From an uncultured Dehalococcoidales bacterium (lineage in GTDB: Bacteria; Chloroflexota; Dehalococcoidia; GIF9; UBA5629), in assembly GCA_964413085.1 (NCBI GenBank), contig CAYPRI010000006.1, positions 1-46,666 on the forward strand: a DNA stretch of 46,666 nt, in the 5' to 3' direction. The translations under genes were made by a program, and so were the position numbers. Under the pieces are notes generated by a model. The model was given only the letters and a program-made list of their open reading frames with translations, ran no database searches and was not told the DNA's origin. This document shows, piece by piece, positions 1 to 7,726 of this stretch (the first letter of the stretch is position 1; each line of letters opens with the position of its first letter).

Positions 1-98
1 GGCTTATTGACGGCGGGTGGGCAAGAACAGATTCGAATTAAAGAAGACGATTGTGGGTAGGTCGAGACATCTAATATAGCTTCACTCTATCTCAAAAT

Positions 99-127
99 TT
101 GACAGAATATGATATATATGTCATAAT
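99..127 (+). promoter_or_regulatory. sigma70-type promoter with overlapping inverted repeat (TA operator); probably leaderless
   Basis: TTGACA(99-104)-17 nt-CATAAT(122-127); imperfect palindrome ATGATATATATGTCAT across spacer/-10; ATG 8 nt after the -10, no SD. Confidence 0.7.
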
Positions 128-135
128 TCTCTTTA

Positions 136-495
136 ATGGACTGGCAAATAGAATTCTATTTGACCGAGAGGGGTGAGTCGCCGATTGAAGACGATATAGC
201 TGATTTTCCCAAGAAAGCTGGCGCTAAAATACTCAGATGGTTGGATCAACTAGAGAAGTACGGACTAAGCAATTTAAAAGACTATATAACAAAGCTCGAG
301 GGATATAACCTATTTGAATTTAAGATTTTACATGCGGGCAATTATTATCGTATCTTCTTTTGCTCCTACGAAAATAAACGATTAACACTATTCCACATTT
401 TCAAAAAGAAATCGAATAAAACACCTCGACGTGAAATTGAGAAGGCAATGAGCAGGAAACAAGATTACGATTCTCGCTCACGGACACATAATTGA
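136..495 (+). CDS. RelE/ParE-superfamily toxin (HigB/Gp49-like)
   Basis: W-I-FY..GESP N-terminus, LFEFKI..YYRIFF, LFHIFKKKSNKTPRREIEKA C-terminus typical of Gp49/HigB; lies upstream of an XRE gene. Confidence 0.85.
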   Translation: MDWQIEFYLTERGESPIEDDIADFPKKAGAKILRWLDQLEKYGLSNLKDYITKLEGYNLFEFKILHAGNYYRIFFCSYENKRLTLFHIFKKKSNKTPRREIEKAMSRKQDYDSRSRTHN

Positions 496-570
496 GTAAT
501 TAACATTGGAGGTAATTGGTTATGTAAGAATAAAAACGCTAAGAAAAAATACAGATGGAAAGATGGATAG

Positions 571-918
571 ATGGAAATGAAAAATAAATTACACGAAATT
601 AAGGATATTGGGGGTATAAGGACATACAAAGAAGTAAAGCAAAGGTTTTTAGCGGACCCGGAGTTTCGAAAGGAATACGAGGCGCTAGGACCCGAGTTCG
701 AGTTAATTGAATTCATAATCAGACGCCGAATGGAACTGAAAATGAGTCAAGAAGAATTAGCAGCCAAGATAGGAACCGGACAGGCTGCTATATCCAGGTT
801 GGAGAGTGGTAATGCCAACCCTACACTGGCATCACTTAATGAAATTGCAGAAGCTTTAGATGCTGAACTCAAAATTGAGCTAAAACCTAAGAATAAACAA
901 AGATTAGCTACAGCTTGA
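571..918 (+). CDS. XRE-family HTH antitoxin (HigA-like)
   Basis: DPEFRKEYEAL...RRRMELKMSQEELAAKIGTGQAAISRLESGNANPTLASL; start may be 577. Confidence 0.88.
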   Translation: MEMKNKLHEIKDIGGIRTYKEVKQRFLADPEFRKEYEALGPEFELIEFIIRRRMELKMSQEELAAKIGTGQAAISRLESGNANPTLASLNEIAEALDAELKIELKPKNKQRLATA

Positions 919-979
919 ATTATCAGATTTTTATGAACATAACAGCTATAAATGAAGCAGCGGAAAAAGGATTAATATT

Positions 980-1246
980 ATGAGGCTGGGAGAAATTATC
1001 ACACTCATAGTATTCATGGTATTTGTACTACCTTTGCTCTTGACTTTTGTAGGCTGGGCTATCTCAAGCGTAATTAATCCAACGCCCGAAAATATTGAAA
1101 AAGGAACCGAGCTTATTGCTCAAGCAGCCACGCCTTGGTGGGTTACCGTTTTCCAATGGATAGGGGATCATACTACAGGTCTTTTAGCCACGATATTGAT
1201 CCTCGGCATTATTCTAATCCTAAAATACAACCCACAACTTATATAA
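980..1246 (+). CDS. small two-TM membrane protein, unknown function
   Basis: AAGGA SD; two hydrophobic stretches (N- and C-terminal). Confidence 0.7.
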   Translation: MRLGEIITLIVFMVFVLPLLLTFVGWAISSVINPTPENIEKGTELIAQAATPWWVTVFQWIGDHTTGLLATILILGIILILKYNPQLI

Positions 1247-1309
1247 AATAATCAAAGATTTCACTTTTTAGGAAACAATTCGAAGCTAAATAGATATTTG
1301 ATTTGAAAA

Positions 1310-2533
1310 TTAAGGAGCACCTAGAAACAGACGGTGCTCATACTTAGCCTGCCGCGGATTATACTCAAAACGAATACCAACTACGCGATACTTAGAAGCC
1401 GACCGATTGGCTCCGGAATCCGATATTTGCACCACATCAAATAACTCCTGGCCACAATTAGGCGGAATGAGAATAATTCCCATGGCTTTTGTAAGCCGCA
1501 TCTTTGAAAGTATAGCATTAGCCACACTCGCCACCTGGCTATCAATGGGGATCGCCAGCTCCTGCTGGCAATCCAACCTCTCACCAACAAGATCCAGCTC
1601 GGCGGAATCTACCGCGTTACCATAGACCGGGTAGCCGTTCTGGTCCTGGCCAACGACAAACGACCGATTAACTCCCGGCGTCTCAATAGCGTATTGACCT
1701 TCCAGGATAACATGCCAGACATACTTATGAAGCGTTGGAATACCGATCGATACTTGCTGAATAATACCGGATGGCTTAAGTACACCTACGTCAAACAAAA
1801 TAGGCTGTCCAATATCGATAACATGGACAATACTCGGAGGACTTATTAACTGGGGATAGGAAAGAGACGGCTCACCCACGGAAACAGAAACAATGGTACT
1901 ATCGGGCAAAATAGAGAACTTCCCCATTGACAACGCCGGCTGCCCTACGCTGACGGACTGGACCATAGCCGAGGGCTTAACAAACAGAACGAGCGACGGC
2001 ACACCTAAAACCAAGGCTTGGGCTATTCCCAACGGAGATATCGTCTGCGGAGCGCTGGCCGTGAAATCAACTACCAACCAGACCTGAGTACCTGAGGCAC
2101 CAGATCCCTTTCCGTCATTGCCGGCTAAACCAAGACCGGCTTGCGCGGCGTTGACTTTAGCCCACGTCCAGGCTACACCATCCATAATGGCATACTGAGT
2201 ATAATATTCGGTCCAAGCTCCCACCGGGATTGACTGTAAATTACCAGAATAAATAGTACTTCCCGATTTCAGCTCAGTGCGAGCATATCCCCCACCAGCA
2301 GTATAAACCCTAATATATGCACGAACCCAGTTAATGGTCCCCTGCTGGCCGGTATCCGCCATGGCATAGAGATCACGAACCAAGCCTGAGCTTACAGTAC
2401 TACTAACAGTAGTGGCTGCATCATCGGAAACTGACTCGTCTACTTTGTCCCAATGATAACCAGTATCAGGATATTGAGCTGGAATAGAAGTCTCATCTCC
2501 TGCACCATTGGGACGTAAAATGAGCTGTGGCAT
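1310..2533 (-). CDS. phage tail/virion-like protein with five internal repeats
   Basis: 407 aa; Gly/Ser/Thr/Trp-rich N-domain, five xxPxxIxxxVxxGxPxL repeats, C-terminal PPNCGQELFDVVQISD...YRVVGI segment reminiscent of tail-hub C-termini (inference). Confidence 0.55.
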   Translation of the reverse strand: MPQLILRPNGAGDETSIPAQYPDTGYHWDKVDESVSDDAATTVSSTVSSGLVRDLYAMADTGQQGTINWVRAYIRVYTAGGGYARTELKSGSTIYSGNLQSIPVGAWTEYYTQYAIMDGVAWTWAKVNAAQAGLGLAGNDGKGSGASGTQVWLVVDFTASAPQTISPLGIAQALVLGVPSLVLFVKPSAMVQSVSVGQPALSMGKFSILPDSTIVSVSVGEPSLSYPQLISPPSIVHVIDIGQPILFDVGVLKPSGIIQQVSIGIPTLHKYVWHVILEGQYAIETPGVNRSFVVGQDQNGYPVYGNAVDSAELDLVGERLDCQQELAIPIDSQVASVANAILSKMRLTKAMGIILIPPNCGQELFDVVQISDSGANRSASKYRVVGIRFEYNPRQAKYEHRLFLGAP

Positions 2534-2536
2534 TCA

Positions 2537-3034
2537 TTAGCTCCAGAAAACATCAAAATCAAACGGCTCCATCTTGCCACCGCGGATACCATGACCCGGC
2601 GGGCAGAATGTCTGAACCGTCTTACCATCTGCTTTTAACTTTCTGTACTTATCCATAGAGAAAGTAATCTTGGTGCTACCCGCAGCTAAAGACTTTGTCT
2701 TCATGGCATGAAACAAGCCACGCTTAAAATCATCCTTGGTTGCCGGCGTTCCCATGGCTGCACATGAAGCATTGCCGTGGACTTTCCGGCATGTTGGAGT
2801 GCCTCTATAACCGGCGCAAAGATCGCACTCGCCCTCGAGGGTACATCTCTTATCGTACTCTTCCCAGCAGAGCTGCCTATTAAAATCGTAGAAAGCCTGT
2901 ATGCCTGAATACCCTAACTTCTGAATATCGGCCAGCAGCTGCGCCGACTCATCCAGTGTTGGATCCGCGGCATGACGGACTCTATATGCGTCTATCAGCT
3001 GGCGGCCGGCCAGCAAGCGGTCAACATCAGACAT
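2537..3034 (-). CDS. Cys-rich hypothetical protein
   Basis: 165 aa, GAGG SD, tightly packed between neighbours; CxxxxxCxxC...C...C cluster. Confidence 0.7.
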   Translation of the reverse strand: MSDVDRLLAGRQLIDAYRVRHAADPTLDESAQLLADIQKLGYSGIQAFYDFNRQLCWEEYDKRCTLEGECDLCAGYRGTPTCRKVHGNASCAAMGTPATKDDFKRGLFHAMKTKSLAAGSTKITFSMDKYRKLKADGKTVQTFCPPGHGIRGGKMEPFDFDVFWS

Positions 3035-3048
3035 ATATAACCTCTACC

Positions 3049-3390
3049 TTATTTAATAAGAGCCTTGATACCCAAGGGCACGGCGATATCAGTTAAGACC
3101 TTGGTAATGGCTTCCTTCAAGGTTTTCTTCTGCTCTCTGGTTATGCTGTAGCGGGTCCGGACCAAGCGGGCGATGGTATTAGCAGCAACGAGATGGAGAT
3201 CGAACCTCTCCGGCTGCTTATCAATGAGATTGCGGAGCTTTAACCGGAGTATAGCGATCTCCTCATCAATGCCCTCTACCTCCCGGGCCTGAGCGAGCTC
3301 AAGCTTTTCTGACTCGTCAAGTACCTGGCTGTAGAACCCGTGCTTCCTGGCATTCTGATTTCCTTTCGGAGCGCCTCTTTTCTTCTTCAA
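3049..3390 (-). CDS. terminase small subunit-like protein
   Basis: N-terminal KRGAPKGNQNARKHGFYS (GAPxGNxNAxxHG motif of phage TerS families) followed by predicted helices; TTG start. Confidence 0.65.
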   Translation of the reverse strand: MKKKRGAPKGNQNARKHGFYSQVLDESEKLELAQAREVEGIDEEIAILRLKLRNLIDKQPERFDLHLVAANTIARLVRTRYSITREQKKTLKEAITKVLTDIAVPLGIKALIK

Positions 3391-3484
3391 TTCTTTTCAC
3401 CATTGCCTTTAGCAGCCCGTAGACAAGTAGCCGGGCGGCTAGATCGTAATTTTGCTGGTCAAGGGCGGCTTTTAATAACGACAT
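3317..3484 (-). CDS. 55-aa hypothetical protein (not in ORF track)
   Basis: AAGGAGAG SD then ATG at 3484: MSLLKAALDQQNYDLAARLLVYGLLKAMVKRIEEEKRRSERKSECQEARVLQPGT; fills the rep-terS gap and overlaps both. Confidence 0.6.
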   Translation of the reverse strand: MSLLKAALDQQNYDLAARLLVYGLLKAMVKRIEEEKRRSERKSECQEARVLQPGT

Positions 3485-5288
3485 GCTGACTCTCCTTATG
3501 GTTTGATTCTATAGAAATAAGCTTGGCGCCGGCGCGCTTCTTAGCCTCATGGATGATACGCAATGTTGCCTGGGGCACTCTATACCGGCCGACTTCTTCC
3601 ATCTCTGCCTGGGTATAAACAACATATCCGGCAGGGACATCTTTGACCGACTCATCGCGGACCAAGGCGATTATCTCGCCATCAAGGGCAGCGCACTGCC
3701 AGAGGCACCAGCCCCGCTTCTCAAGAAACTCTTCGGTAGTAACTTCCTCTTGAATAGGGGCGTCCTTAGAAAATGCGTCCCTTTTGTCCCCAACGTCCCC
3801 TTGAAGCTGACTTTCCACTAGCTGGGGGGACGATTGGGACGTTTGGGACGTAAAATCAAGGGGCGTATCACTAAAGCCGTATTCAGCAGTTAGATGGTTC
3901 AAAAGCTCGAGGTCATAGCAATAGCGCCGCTTGCTGGCATGCCGGCGGGACAGCTGGAAACCGAGGCGGCGCAAGACCTTACCGATATACCGTGATGATT
4001 CTTTATGCAAGTCACTGCGCTCTTGATTAACCTTATCAGTTATAAGGTCGACTTCGATTTTGCCATCTTCAACCGCTGACTGGAGGTCCAGCAACGCCTT
4101 TATTACCTCTCCCTCCAGAGTAGACGATTTGCCTTGTCGTCGTTTCTCGTTGAACTCCTGCACGAGCTCCTCAAACTGAGGGCAATGAGACGGGGACACG
4201 AGATTGATTATCTGCCATAGCGGTATGGCGATATCATTCAGCCGGCCCATGGGAAACTGCGGAGGCAAAGGCAGAGCGAGCTTATCTAACAGGAAATGGG
4301 CGCGCCAGGCAAGCAGCCTCTCCCGGAAGGGCAGGCCATGCTGGGGCTGGGGCTTGGGGAAGTTAACATGAGCGAAGGGCATATCAATGGAAAAGGACCG
4401 GCTTTCCATGACCTCATTAATCGGCTCGTTAGTGGCGATGGCGGTGGCGCCGAAGATATCGTAGAAACGGCTGTCCTTAAAGGGGCCCCACTCCGGGTGA
4501 AGGACCCGCTGGACCTTGGCTCCTTTTTCAAAGCGCTGGAGGACAATATCCAGACTGCTTTCCCTGACGGCTTTCTTTGACAGATTGGAGACATCGATGA
4601 AGAGAGTAGCGGCGAGGTCGTGGGAGGAACGGAAGAGGTTGGCTTCCCTGAGGTTCTCTTGGTGAATGCCGCGGTAGGAAACATAAATCATAGATTGACC
4701 GGTCTTGGTCTTGCCTCTTTCCGGGACTGCATAAAGATAGATATAGCCGGAATAATTTAGGTGCTCGATGATATAGGTAGAGAAATCCCAGGCGGCAAGG
4801 AGGACATAGTAGGCTGCGGACGGTAGCTGCGCGAAAGATTTGTGGTAGTCGATGAGATCCTGGAAGAGAACCTGGGAAGTATCTTCGTGGTACGCCCGAC
4901 TGATCTCTTTCCAGCGGGGGATAAGAAAAGGGAGCTGGTCTTTAGGGGGTGGGAAAGCAACCTTGCCGCCCAGGGAAACCGAGGGAACTGTCTTTAGCTG
5001 AAGTCCTTCGATAATAAGGAAGAGGAGATTGCCGTTATCTTCAACTATGTCGACCAAATTGGGGAAGCGGGCCAGATAACAGGACTGGACAGCCGGCTCC
5101 TTCTTGGGGAGCTCAAACTTAGGTGGGCTTGATAAGGCTACTGGTTTTTTATCAGGCTTTATGAACTCTTCCAGCTTATGGATAGAACCGTCAGGCATAT
5201 GCACCTGCTGGATAATCCTGCCGTCAGAATGCTGCGCCGGCATGATAAAAGCACCATCAGGGATCTTGGAATGGTCAACGCGGGACAT
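3459..5288 (-). CDS. replication protein, P-loop NTPase/helicase-like (DUF3631-like) with winged-helix-like C-terminal part
   Basis: Walker A-like AVPERGKTKT, Walker B-like TLFID, IATN..ESR sensor/Arg-finger-like segment, IGKVLRRLGF wHTH-like motif; directly follows xis; likely start ATG 5288 (track ORF extends to 5363). Confidence 0.65.
   Translation of the reverse strand: MSRVDHSKIPDGAFIMPAQHSDGRIIQQVHMPDGSIHKLEEFIKPDKKPVALSSPPKFELPKKEPAVQSCYLARFPNLVDIVEDNGNLLFLIIEGLQLKTVPSVSLGGKVAFPPPKDQLPFLIPRWKEISRAYHEDTSQVLFQDLIDYHKSFAQLPSAAYYVLLAAWDFSTYIIEHLNYSGYIYLYAVPERGKTKTGQSMIYVSYRGIHQENLREANLFRSSHDLAATLFIDVSNLSKKAVRESSLDIVLQRFEKGAKVQRVLHPEWGPFKDSRFYDIFGATAIATNEPINEVMESRSFSIDMPFAHVNFPKPQPQHGLPFRERLLAWRAHFLLDKLALPLPPQFPMGRLNDIAIPLWQIINLVSPSHCPQFEELVQEFNEKRRQGKSSTLEGEVIKALLDLQSAVEDGKIEVDLITDKVNQERSDLHKESSRYIGKVLRRLGFQLSRRHASKRRYCYDLELLNHLTAEYGFSDTPLDFTSQTSQSSPQLVESQLQGDVGDKRDAFSKDAPIQEEVTTEEFLEKRGWCLWQCAALDGEIIALVRDESVKDVPAGYVVYTQAEMEEVGRYRVPQATLRIIHEAKKRAGAKLISIESNHKESQHVVIKSRP
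3776..3850. repeat. inverted iteron array, putative replication origin
   Basis: CGTCCC 3776, TGTCCC 3785, CGTCCC 3794 then GGGACG 3827, 3836, 3845; 9-bp period, 27-bp spacer. Confidence 0.75.
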
Positions 5289-5304
5289 AGAACTGGCATC
5301 CTCG

Positions 5305-5487
5305 CTAGCTGGGAGTAACGGCCAGCTCCAGCATGTTCTGGACGGCTTTCTTGGGGACGACAAGCCTCTTGCCGAAGCGAAGAGTGGGGAGCTTACCAGT
5401 GCGGGCCATCTCGTAGGCCAGGGCGCGGCTGATACCCAGGAGTTTGCCGGCTTCTTCTACAGTAAAAGTTAGTTTTTCTTCTGCCAT
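5305..5487 (-). CDS. excisionase / HTH_17 DNA-binding protein
   Basis: LTFTVEEAGKLLGISRALAYEMARTGKLPTLRFGKRLVVPK; AGGAG SD. Confidence 0.9.
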   Translation of the reverse strand: MAEEKLTFTVEEAGKLLGISRALAYEMARTGKLPTLRFGKRLVVPKKAVQNMLELAVTPS

Positions 5488-5503
5488 TACGTTAGTTCTC
5501 CTA

Positions 5504-5556
5504 TTGACAAGTGATGGGGTGTATACTACAATAGAACAAATGTTTCACTTGGTCAA
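5504..5556. promoter_or_regulatory. overlapping divergent sigma70 promoters with LexA (Cheo-type) box
   Basis: + strand TTGACA(5504)-17-TACAAT(5527); - strand TTGACC(5556-5551)-17-TATTGT; AGAAC-AAAT-GTTTC at 5533-5546. Confidence 0.65.
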
Positions 5557-5579
5557 GGAGTTTTTGTCCACCCCTACTT

Positions 5580-6233
5580 ATGATAAAGTGGCTAAACGGG
5601 GGGCAGTTTATGTATAAAAAGAACCAAATCAGTGCCATGACAAATTTTCATATACCAGACTGCGAAGAATTTAAAGATGGAATCAACGCTTATAATATGA
5701 AGGAGAAACGCGGCCCGATATGGTTCAGTGCCCTATCAACAGTAACAACAAACTGGGGGAAGCCAGCAAAAATGGCGGAGGGAATACACGAATTAATTAA
5801 AGGTTGGAACAGATTTTATTCAGATATAGACCTACAGAAATTAAGCACCTGCATAAAAAAGAATCAAACTACCTTAACGGGACTAAAAGGCAGACATATT
5901 ATTAGCCTATCAAATAAAGACATACCGATAATTGAGGACTTATTTAGACAATTTCTTTCTGCTTTAGCACGAGTCAAAGATGATAGAGAAAGTCCAGTAT
6001 CTGTCGCCAAAGCATTTAGTTTATTAGCTCCAGACTTTTTACCCATATGGGATATTTTAATAGCATGGGCATATGGTTCTATAACAGCATCAGGGACATA
6101 CATACCTTTTTGTCTGAAAATGAAAATATTGTATGAAAAAGTAAAACACTGCATCCCGCCCGGGGACGACAGATCTCTTTTGAAAAGAATAGATGAATAT
6201 AATTATTCCAAATATACTATGAAATGGATATAG
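5580..6233 (+). CDS. hypothetical protein, HhH-GPD/OGG-fold DNA glycosylase-like
   Basis: SPVSVAKAFSLLAPDFLPIWD and LLKRIDEYNY motifs; AT-rich; true start may be 5610 or 5637. Confidence 0.5.
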   Translation: MIKWLNGGQFMYKKNQISAMTNFHIPDCEEFKDGINAYNMKEKRGPIWFSALSTVTTNWGKPAKMAEGIHELIKGWNRFYSDIDLQKLSTCIKKNQTTLTGLKGRHIISLSNKDIPIIEDLFRQFLSALARVKDDRESPVSVAKAFSLLAPDFLPIWDILIAWAYGSITASGTYIPFCLKMKILYEKVKHCIPPGDDRSLLKRIDEYNYSKYTMKWI

Positions 6234-6274
6234 AATAATATAGAAAGACTTTAAAGTGAAAGCATGAGAATACT

Positions 6275-7726
6275 ATGAGGGGGCATATCAAACAAAGAGC
6301 TAAAGGATCATGGAGCATAGTGATTGATGTGGGGAGGGACCCGCAGACCGGGAAAAGGCAGCAGCAATGGCACACAATTAAGGGGACAAAGAAAGAAGCG
6401 GAGGCGAAACCAAGAGAGCTGATCGATGCGCTGGAGAAGGGTGTCTTTGTTAAGCCCAGCAAGATGACGGTGGGAGAATGGCTAGAGGAATGGCTTAAAA
6501 ACTACGCGGCGCTTCATGTATCACCGAGAACATTAGAAGGATATAAATTCCTTATTCGAAGACACATAGCTCCGGCGCTTGGAGCACTCGAGTTAACCAA
6601 GCTTGAATCACGGCACTTGCAAAATTACTACGCCAAAGCGTTAACCACAGGCAGGCTTAACGGCGAAGGTGGCCTGGGAAATAGGAGCGTTCAATATCAG
6701 CACCGCATCATATCCAATGCGCTTAAATATGGTTTGAGGATGGGGGTACTCAGCCGAAATGTGGCGCAGGCGGTGGACCCGCCCAGATTGGTTCGAAAAC
6801 CTCTTTCAGTCTTGTCTCCAGAAGACCTAGCCAGGTTTCTCAAGGCCGCTAAAGATACAATTTACTATCCAATACTTTTCGCCGCACTTTATACCGGCAT
6901 GCGCAGAGGAGAACTGCTAGCGTTACGGTGGCGGGATATCGACCTGGCCATGTCAACACTATCAGTGGTCAATTCATTATACCGACTTAATAGGCAAACC
7001 GTAATAAAAGAACCTAAGAGCCAGCACAGCAGAAGAATGATAGCTTTACCGCCAACGCTGACGTTAATGCTGAGCAACTATAAAATTGAACAAGCGAGGC
7101 AGAGAGAAATTATAGATAAGCCTTTGTCTGATAACGACTTTGTATTTGCACATATCGATGGGGAGCCCATTGACCCTGATACCGTGACACAAGCATTCGG
7201 CAACATACTCCAAAAAGCAGGGCTACCGCACATGAGATTCCATGACCTTAGACACACTCACGCTACACTAATGCTAAAGGCGGGAATACATCCCAAGATC
7301 GTTAGCGAGCGGTTGGGGCACGCTAAGGTATCTATAACGCTCGACATTTACAGCCACATACTACCCGGACTGCAGGAAGCAGCAGCTGAGAGCTTTGACA
7401 AGATGCTTAAACCGAAGATACTTGATGTTGAGGATGTTAGCAAAATGTTAGCAAACGAAGGGGATTTGAATGGTGGAGCTGATGGGATTCGAACCCACTA
7501 CCTTTTGACTGCCAGTCAAACGCTCTCCCGATTGAGCTACAGCCCCACGCCGAAAAGTCTAGCAAAAAGCCCGCCGAAACTCAAACGTGTTCAGTGTTTC
7601 AGCGGCCGTCCCCAGGCATCCAGGCGCCAGTCGCTGGCAATGATGATAAAATCGGTCAACCACCACACGCCAAAACAGCCCAGTGTCACCAGCTTGATTA
7701 TCGCTGAGCGAGTTCTACCGATGTAG
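6275..7726 (+). CDS. tyrosine recombinase / phage integrase (ORF extends through tRNA antisense)
   Basis: Arm-binding-type N-terminus MRGHIKQR..SW, core-binding domain, catalytic GMRRGE, HDLRH, LGH, TLDIYSH. Confidence 0.95.
   Translation: MRGHIKQRAKGSWSIVIDVGRDPQTGKRQQQWHTIKGTKKEAEAKPRELIDALEKGVFVKPSKMTVGEWLEEWLKNYAALHVSPRTLEGYKFLIRRHIAPALGALELTKLESRHLQNYYAKALTTGRLNGEGGLGNRSVQYQHRIISNALKYGLRMGVLSRNVAQAVDPPRLVRKPLSVLSPEDLARFLKAAKDTIYYPILFAALYTGMRRGELLALRWRDIDLAMSTLSVVNSLYRLNRQTVIKEPKSQHSRRMIALPPTLTLMLSNYKIEQARQREIIDKPLSDNDFVFAHIDGEPIDPDTVTQAFGNILQKAGLPHMRFHDLRHTHATLMLKAGIHPKIVSERLGHAKVSITLDIYSHILPGLQEAAAESFDKMLKPKILDVEDVSKMLANEGDLNGGADGIRTHYLLTASQTLSRLSYSPTPKSLAKSPPKLKRVQCFSGRPQASRRQSLAMMIKSVNHHTPKQPSVTSLIIAERVLPM
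7434..7455 (+). repeat. perfect 11-bp tandem repeat (ATGTTAGCAAA)x2, candidate integrase arm site
   Basis: 15 bp from the tRNA CCA end, on the element side. Confidence 0.55.
7471..7546 (-). tRNA. tRNA-Ala(GGC)
   Basis: GGGGCTGTAGCTCAATCGGGAGAGCGTTTGACTGGCAGTCAAAAGGTAGTGGGTTCGAATCCCATCAGCTCCACCA; cloverleaf, G3:U70, encoded CCA. Confidence 0.98.
7556..7584 (-). promoter_or_regulatory. tRNA promoter
   Basis: TTGAGT-17-TAGACT with TGn extension, just upstream of the tRNA 5' end. Confidence 0.6.

Follow-up and report, generated by a model that had tools for sequence, protein, structure and literature searches.

An integrated element with phage genes for replication, packaging and a tail-type protein, and no head genes, in an uncultured Dehalococcoidales bacterium: a candidate helper-dependent satellite

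Introduction

Is a mobile element that keeps phage genes for integration, replication and packaging, and has no gene for a head, a satellite that travels in the particles of a helper phage, or is it what a deletion has left of a prophage? The question was raised by the first 7.5 kb of a contig (C6) from an uncultured Dehalococcoidales bacterium of the Chloroflexota (GenBank assembly GCA_964413085.1, contig CAYPRI010000006.1, positions 1 to 46,666). This whole stretch of 46,666 nucleotides is called the window here; it belongs to a metagenome-assembled genome (MAG; G000) of 115 contigs and 88% completeness. A sequence-only reading of the window had proposed a new type of satellite with an int/xis/rep/terS core and a tail-like gene of its own.

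In our judgement the chances are about even that the element is a helper-dependent satellite resembling PICI (phage-inducible chromosomal islands). The reading draws on selection across an old head-less junction, a patchy distribution, relatives with exact attachment (att) repeats, and a terS that has been kept repeatedly. It also draws on a tail module that is predicted to need the phage protein p606, which was found only in full phages and had no tblastn homologue in the own genome, G000.

Results

Gene order and missing head genes

The genes of the element run in the order int, orf217, xis, a helicase gene (rep, 609 or 634 amino acids), orf55, a gene for a protein like the terminase small subunit (TerS), the gene for a Cys-rich 165-amino-acid protein (cys165) and the gene for a 407-amino-acid tail-like protein (tail407), and all eight open reading frames (ORFs) were open (Table 1). 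The six genes from xis to tail407 form one leftward, tightly packed set, which confirmed the arrangement given by the sequence-only reading; TM88 and a toxin-antitoxin (TA) pair lie convergent with this set. Shine-Dalgarno-like motifs preceded most of the starts. As had been claimed, no portal, capsid or terminase large subunit (TerL) gene was detected at positions 1-7470 by Pfam, PHROG or tblastn searches, the last with the proteins of the phage locus L021. The terS stop and the start of cys165 are just 14 bases apart, and no gene for a portal, scaffold, major capsid protein (MCP), adaptor or p606 lies between terS and the tail gene.

The full relatives of the element, found in IMG/VR and in genome loci, carry a structural block that consists of an SPP1-type portal, a scaffold, an HK97/SU10-type capsid, an SU10 adaptor, p119, p247, p606, p135 and, at its end, a tail protein homologous to tail407. 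The tail407 homologue was the last gene of the structural module in L021 and in all 16 further IMG/VR loci listed, and p606 preceded the tail gene in 16 of these 16. The closest full relative, an IMG/VR contig (L021/L128), shares int (51% identity), xis (88%), rep (80%), orf55 and terS (86%) with the element and carries in addition an 8-kb structural block, TerL and small genes; it was the only contig returned when viral contigs were scanned with rep. Nucleotide homology between the window and L128 stops at position 3056, at the terS stop, and resumes only inside the tail gene (1759-1355). Compared with L021, about 7 kb from the portal to p135 and also TerL are absent from the window, a loss of morphogenesis genes of the kind that marks a defective prophage.

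Another locus, L056, lies on a contig that holds only the end of a structural module, with the order p606-p135-cys165 (56%)-tail407 (54%), and therefore cys165 and tail407 form the natural end of such a module. Since the same cassette stands behind p606 and p135 there, the earlier proposal that the tail module changes the host range of the hijacked particle was not supported as a necessary one. Judged by gene sequence and order, the element is descended from a small, temperate, podovirus-like phage family of uncultured Dehalococcoidia; it would have lost the portal-scaffold-capsid-adaptor-p119-p247-p606-p135 block and TerL, and gained the TA cargo and orf217.

An old junction under selection

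The same junction was found in L057, an independent metagenome contig of 1554 bp with the order rep (87%)-orf55 (91%)-terS (96%)-cys165 (82%)-tail407 (83%), which is collinear with the window over 1553 bp (83.4% nucleotide identity, 3 gap positions). Measured on this one pair of sequences over 1.5 kb, synonymous divergence (dS) was 0.65-0.89, and the ratio of nonsynonymous to synonymous divergence (dN/dS) was 0.14 for rep, 0.02 for terS, 0.14 for cys165 and 0.10 for the N-terminal part of tail407. A terS-cys165-tail407 junction that is shared at this divergence with dN/dS of 0.02-0.14 argues that the head-less form is old and under purifying selection, and no fresh deletion; the concern that it might be a one-off deletion of a prophage was answered in this way. 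The cys165 of the L057 lineage was letter-identical in the alignment to P0182, whose contig of 4288 bp is exactly as long as the one that encodes the full-length 407-amino-acid tail protein P0001.

These data bear on the alternative that the element is a defective prophage or genomic island, from which the morphogenesis block was deleted and which is not transferred in particles. It would be kept by its TA pair and possibly by cargo useful to the host, and its phage genes would be not yet degraded or would serve the host. We regard this as possible, with the weight of probability against it. The eight open ORFs, the low dN/dS across a shared head-less junction at dS of about 0.8 and the full-length tail protein in a second lineage all speak against it, and neither pseudogenes nor relaxed selection, the marks of a decaying prophage, were seen in the window.

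Head-less relatives and their integration sites

Two complete relatives without head genes were found in the same genus. In G001, an 18.2-kb element (C4 130-18351; L159 and L164) is integrated at tRNA-Thr(cgt), and copies of the last 42 bp of this tRNA (its 3' end) mark both of its borders. It begins with int-xis-rep (81%)-orf55-terS (89%); after terS, a 971-amino-acid Peptidase_C92 protein replaces the cys165/tail407 cassette and is followed by a PIN/helix-turn-helix (HTH) TA pair and by Gam/Gp157, DndB-like and methylase genes. No TerL, portal, MCP, p606 or tail match was found in this element. In G008, a 15.9-kb element (C23; L171 1695-17589) occupies the same tRNA-Ala(ggc) as the element of the window and is bounded by a 46-bp repeat; its int and rep are each 84% identical to those of the window, its cargo comprises a TA pair, a type I restriction-modification (R-M) system, Fic, PIN and a GIY-YIG protein, and no capsid, portal or TerL was found in it. 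Antitoxin homologues lie at the same relative place in both elements (72-79% identical to that of the window; 79% in G001), and xis is 84-88% identical in L128, G001 and G008.

The three head-less junctions of the window, G001 and G008 differ, yet each begins directly after terS, which is not what unselected decay of a prophage would predict. The rep genes of G001 and G008 are nearer to that of the full phage L128 (dS 0.36-0.45) than to that of the window (dS 1.0-1.3), which indicates that head-less forms arose more than once or that they swap modules with phages.

The G008 copy is also an argument for decay. Its terS carries a +1 frameshift and it has no tail cassette, so that it looks like an element decaying into a genomic island; the sequence-only reading held for the window in that its ORFs are intact, and failed in so far as it saw nothing decaying. 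Divergence of int between the window and G008 (dS 1.5) is close to that of the flanking ClpB (1.6) and TM2 (1.9) genes, which is compatible with old vertical inheritance and thereby with a defective prophage.

The distribution of the element among genomes was patchy. Of the 202 genomes of the order, 6 had a rep homologue; of the 401 genomes sampled from the class, 3 had one, namely the own genome and two more at 36-39% identity. Six loci of the same genus were fetched; in five tRNA-Ala(ggc) is kept behind a conserved ClpB-VTT-methyltransferase-p282-TM2 order, and none of these five holds the element (the fetched stretch of the sixth, G004, contained no tRNA). A rare rep and element-free tRNA-Ala loci fit a mobile element, and the absence from these five loci argues against a defective prophage. 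One of the five, in G006, holds a different island at its tRNA-Ala(ggc) site, of 6.7 kb with a 26-bp repeat of the tRNA 3' end (L111 3548-10394, G006:C1). By comparison of these loci, the site is an integration hot spot in the genus. An integrase-like ORF also lies downstream of tRNA-Ala(ggc) in G009 (L113).

The tail cassette and its predicted docking

The cys165 protein is rare, with only four clusters among 5.8 billion proteins, and its seven cysteines were invariant in six aligned sequences. None of the 13 remaining genomes of the genus had it, and matches in the family were weak and confined to 2 of 76 genomes; it gave no match in the viral-contig scan and no usable Atlas match.

For tail407, 193 homologues were found, most of which share only the C-terminal 50-70%; other members of the family have DUF4082, Laminin_G_3 or DUF2341 at the N-terminal position. 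The AlphaFold2 (AF2) model was confident for residues 1-160 (predicted local distance difference test, pLDDT, about 90) and unreliable beyond residue 160 (pLDDT below 50), and the Foldseek matches concern the N-domain only. In PDB these were carbohydrate-binding modules (CBM) 6/16/35 and Cry domain III; in BFVD they were phage proteins that are uncharacterised (1.9e-9). An Atlas model of residues 268-407 resembled phage tail and baseplate domains (YQBQ, Phage-tail_3, GpP-like) with TM scores of 0.66-0.83, matches to be read as leads. Identity of the C-terminal domain is 58% to its L021 counterpart and reaches 73% in other loci of the phage family, and in some phages (L030, L053, L054, L066) the domain is a separate small gene right after p606. 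Sequence searches of PDB with tail407, p606 and rep returned nothing useful.

A complex between L021 p606 and residues 265-407 of the window's tail407 was predicted with an ipSAE of 0.81, compared with 0.00 for the best of three controls. As calibration, 58 of 80 solved complexes and 2 of 110 mismatched pairs attain this level, counts that hold roughly for a prediction made on our own alignments, and the score shows likeness, not binding. The runs shared at least 75% of contacts, and partner pLDDT was at least 66. The predicted interface segments, 356-375 and 381-394, hold the invariant family residues N359, C360, G361, Q362, E363, D366, V367, D372, R383, V384 and Y391. The prediction supports docking of the C-terminal domain of tail407 on the p606 of full phages.

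Predicted binding to p606 could equally serve interference with tail assembly, and this leads to a further alternative, in which cys165 and tail407, and perhaps terS, are a host-domesticated module kept for surface adhesion or for anti-phage defence by titrating p606. Purifying selection with no visible helper would suit it, as would a terS-TerL locus, described below, whose persistence in most genomes of the order indicates that phage genes are retained for long in this clade. The near absence of cys165 from the genus and the family is not the pattern of a domesticated gene, and the location of these genes, inside an int/xis/rep element at a hot spot for tRNA integration, also speaks against it. 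We consider domestication quite improbable.

The contig end and the search for a helper

Base 1 of the window is the first base of contig C6, and a Logan unitig of sequencing run X1 stops at the same base. Window positions 5-61 match DNA in the interior of both the G001 and the G008 element, immediately past the TA genes of each. Taken together, the contig start and this homology indicate that the element continues to the left, probably into 8-10 kb of unassembled or unbinned DNA, and window 1-7546 appears to be the tRNA-proximal 7.5 kb of an integrated element. In the sequence-only reading, the operon stopped at the convergent TA cargo and head genes had no space left to them; that argument does not stand, and what survives of its satellite proposal is the int/xis/rep/TerS core with a tail-type gene, the head genes missing in comparison with relatives, and the shared and selected junction. 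The conserved motif at positions 1-61 may be a regulatory site, and it may also be a repeat that breaks assembly.

With the contig cut 1.3 kb past the tail gene, the element could in principle be a complete temperate phage of unusual gene order, with portal, capsid and TerL in the unassembled part left of base 1. The family is not uniform in its gene order: TerL stands after terS in L016, L017 and L046, and after the tail gene in L021, L015, L018, L024 and L027. In every full relative, however, terS and the tail gene flank the head genes; beyond the homology at 5-61, the interiors of the G001 and G008 elements lead to p131 homologues (in G001 also to Gam/Gp157), not to head genes; both of these att-bounded relatives are without any head genes; and no portal, MCP or p606 match was found on any of the 115 contigs. 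We think a complete phage very unlikely.

No second copy of the 26-nt 3' core of tRNA-Ala was found in the own assembly at up to 4 mismatches, and no contig of that assembly overlaps the start of C6; the duplicated tRNA end expected by the sequence-only reading was thus seen only in the homologous G008 element, as its identical 46-bp repeat. A tRNA-like start of contig C24 was considered as the left att site and rejected, as it is the 3' part of a tRNA-Ser that is also on C47. Both contigs (C24:1-53 and C47:3-94) open with the same tRNA-Ser 3' end, and C47 also has an integrase-like match; these ends are probably those of another island whose att repeat broke the assembly. In the Logan contigs of four DNA runs, neither a circular or empty-site joint of the element nor sequence past base 1 was found, so that the circular attP junction looked for did not appear.

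All proteins of L021 were compared with the own genome by tblastn, and matches were limited to the genes of the window, a stretch on C61 that resembles p247 (41%) and, on C84, a TerL; a co-resident full prophage of the family was not found in the MAG. The C61 stretch is a 265-amino-acid ORF (C61:1804-2601; L127) with 41% identity to the last 150 residues of p247, at its C-terminus. With an integrase fragment (3997-4665) and a protease-like gene nearby, it looks like another phage-derived patch.

The C84 gene qualifies the earlier claim that TerL is missing, which applies to positions 1-7470 and not to the genome. This intact-looking TerL shares 72% identity with its L021 counterpart and is truncated by the contig start; after it come genes for a CetZ-like tubulin, an Ig/TIG protein and Rho. 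Contig C84 was rejected as the missing left part of the element: the same orf55-terS-TerL trio lies beside the same genes in G006, G009 and G076, and in G004, a genome assembled as one contig, about 837 kb separate Rho from the neighbourhood of tRNA-Ala. On its other side, the trio of G006 is bordered by ordinary chromosomal genes. The genomes with the orphan trio number four: G076, which belongs to the same family, and three of the genus (C84:1-1410 (L044); L123 5159-7002; L124 11302-13117; L161 7795-9573). Among the 202 genomes of the order, 147 had terS homologues (71 of the 78 of high quality), mostly in single copy, and 66 had MCP. The orphan terS-TerL locus looks like a long-kept, possibly domesticated terminase, perhaps of the kind of a gene transfer agent.

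In G006 (C3; L125 16601-19999 and L126 2-3512), a distance of about 23 kb separates the Rho/terS-TerL locus from a set of p247-p606-p135-tail genes for which neither a portal nor an MCP match was seen, and in G009 an MCP gene lies about 18 kb from Rho. A phage-derived gene set appears to be split across chromosomal genes in these two genomes.

Other features of the element

The rep protein had no Pfam or PHROG match. It carries a Walker-A-like motif (AVPERGKT), and its AF2 model (pLDDT 78.6) matched, as best PDB folds, MCM/CMG, the NrS-1 helicase, the SCCmec Cch helicase, PriRep1 and African swine fever virus PrimPol (E 1.5e-6 to 1e-5); the P-loop rep of the sequence-only reading gained support from both. 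In a homologue list of 60 proteins, many of those with 33-58% identity carry primase domains (DUF3854, Toprim_2, zf-CHC2, PriCT), and the rep of the window has no fused primase domain. The predicted MCM/SF3-like fold would give the element a replicase of its own, as PICI-like satellites have. The TerS that such satellites also have is represented by a partial PHROG match and by the context of TerL, which lies directly downstream of the terS homologue in 25 of 30 loci; the NCBIfam model TerS_not_xtmA scored 34.2 bits, below its cut-off of 120. No AlpA-family match was listed for the HTH_17 protein encoded by xis, and no repressor was identified.

The int ORF has no stop before the tRNA and reads through tRNA-Ala into the antisense of the TM2 gene; an overlap of int with the tRNA was also seen in G001 (tRNA-Thr) and G008. 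The att junction would therefore set the real C-terminus, and the integrated and excised forms would encode different C-termini. The orf217 gene is absent from L128, G001 and G008, and in run X4 one contig (depth 2) joins position 5570 to 6275 through 34 other letters, a variant without orf217 like those three. An Rfam scan found the tRNA only, and promoter-like and terminator-like sites were no commoner than in shuffles (13 compared with 11.6 and 10 compared with 7.9).

Table 1. Features of the element and its integration site in the window
Feature	Position	Strand	Basis
Conserved non-coding motif: a TTGACA and two GGGTGGGC repeats	1-61		Common to the interiors of the G001 and G008 elements; blastn 79% identity and alignment
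TA cargo: Gp49/HigB-like toxin (136-495) and HTH_3 antitoxin (571-918)	136-918	+	Pfam Gp49 1.8e-20, HTH_3 6.9e-14
TM88, small hydrophobic/membrane protein	980-1246	+	ORF; no family match
tail407, 407-aa tail-type protein	1310-2533	-	N-terminal CBM-like beta-sandwich 1-160; repeats of about 20 aa, 165-270; conserved C-terminal anchor domain, about 270-407
cys165, Cys-rich 165-aa protein, partner gene of the tail protein	2537-3034	-	7 invariant Cys and 1 invariant His
TerS-like protein, 113 aa	3049-3390	-	phrog_1889 terminase small subunit 1.1e-10, residues 5-59 only
orf55, small conserved ORF overlapping the terS start	3317-3484	-	Homologues directly before terS in 29 of 30 terS loci; also in L021, L057, G001 and G008
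rep, replication protein, MCM-like/SF3-type AAA+ helicase (predicted fold)	3459-5363	-	609 aa from ATG 5288; 634 aa from TTG 5363
xis, HTH_17 excisionase-like, 60 aa	5305-5487	-	Pfam HTH_17 1.5e-10; PHROG excisionase families 1.5e-5 to 7e-4
orf217, cargo between int and xis	5580-6233	+	No Pfam, PHROG or NCBIfam match
int, tyrosine integrase	6275-7726	+	Pfam Phage_integrase 1.3e-26, Phage_int_SAM_3 4.8e-14, Arm-DNA-bind_4 1.3e-6; phrog_1 8.9e-79
att core, the 3' 46 bases of tRNA-Ala	7470-7515	-	46-bp copy, 100% identical, bounds the homologous G008 element
tRNA-Ala(ggc), integration target	7471-7546	-	ARAGORN; Rfam RF00005 69.5 bits

Discussion

The satellite reading accounts for a head-less element that keeps terS and a tail module under selection, and several results weigh against it. 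The contig end cuts the element and hides its full size, its second att site and its other genes. The TerS call rests on the partial PHROG match and the sub-threshold NCBIfam score, selection was measured on a single short pair, and docking on p606 is a prediction. Remnants of the phage family are common in the order: the orphan terS-TerL locus is one, kept in most genomes, and lone or frameshifted tail genes occur in L048, L050 and L051. The latter would also be expected if the element were a defective prophage, as would the frameshifted G008 copy with its R-M, Fic and PIN cargo, a MAG in which no helper phage of the family was found, and Logan contigs in which no excision joint was found.

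If the element is a satellite, its cycle might run as follows. A full phage of the same family would infect the cell or be induced, and the element would then excise by Int and Xis and replicate with its own MCM-like helicase. Its TerS, acting with the TerL of the helper, would load element DNA into helper capsids. The tail407 protein would be mounted on the p606 of the helper through its conserved C-terminal domain, and the CBM-like N-domain would be presented as an adhesin. A broader scenario is tentative and rather doubtful: a single lineage of small podovirus-like phages may have given rise to head-less elements again and again, each time losing all that comes after terS, the lineage of the window and L057 may keep a receptor-binding cys165 and tail407 that plug into the p606 of the helper, and helper-built particles might then carry satellite DNA together with an adhesin chosen by the satellite.

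If true, a satellite with its own adhesin in uncultured, slow-growing Chloroflexota would widen the host range and the strategies known for phage parasites, and it would provide a route of gene transfer for TA cargo, and in relatives for R-M cargo, in a clade in which none has been characterised. If the element is only a defective prophage, the finding is an ordinary one. The presence of a parent phage, three different head-less derivatives and a decaying copy within one genus would make the step from phage to satellite open to direct study.

According to the main text of a 2023 survey (PMC10085698), known satellites are mostly from Proteobacteria and Firmicutes and essentially devoid of tail genes, and tail and holin genes are forbidden components for PICI in SatelliteFinder; the string 'Chloroflex' does not occur in that text. 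Our literature search found no report of such elements in Dehalococcoidia and, judged from the search listings, no satellite with a tail adhesin of its own.

The element shares int, xis, rep, orf55 and terS with the full phages of the L021/L128 and L016/L046 type at 51-88% identity. Its rep shares a predicted fold with the SCCmec Cch, PriRep1 and NrS-1 helicases, with no detectable sequence similarity to any PDB chain. Like PICI and the related SaPI, it has an integrase at one end beside its tRNA target, a small HTH gene of the excisionase type, an MCM/SF3 helicase of the mobile-element kind and TerS; it carries TA cargo (defence cargo in relatives), shows no capsid, portal or TerL in its assembled part, and has relatives of 16-18 kb. 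It differs from them in its tail-type gene and partner gene, its Chloroflexota host and the lack of a gene for capsid-size redirection. A further difference is the identity of 80-90% between its genes and their counterparts in a full phage, a sign that it originated from one recently.

Capsid-forming PICI (cf-PICI), as presented in the main text of the same survey (PMC10085698), make their own capsid, portal, connectors and TerL and borrow tails. For these components no match was found in the window or in the own genome, except for the TerL of the unrelated C84 locus. The likeness, which we infer from the genes, is that of a satellite supplying one part of the virion and taking the rest from its helper; the difference is that the element would be the mirror image, keeping only a tail-tip module and TerS, without head, TerL or tail core. 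Since tail407 is the last structural gene of the parent phages, the element falls outside the PICI definition by its tail gene, while working, if at all, like a PICI.

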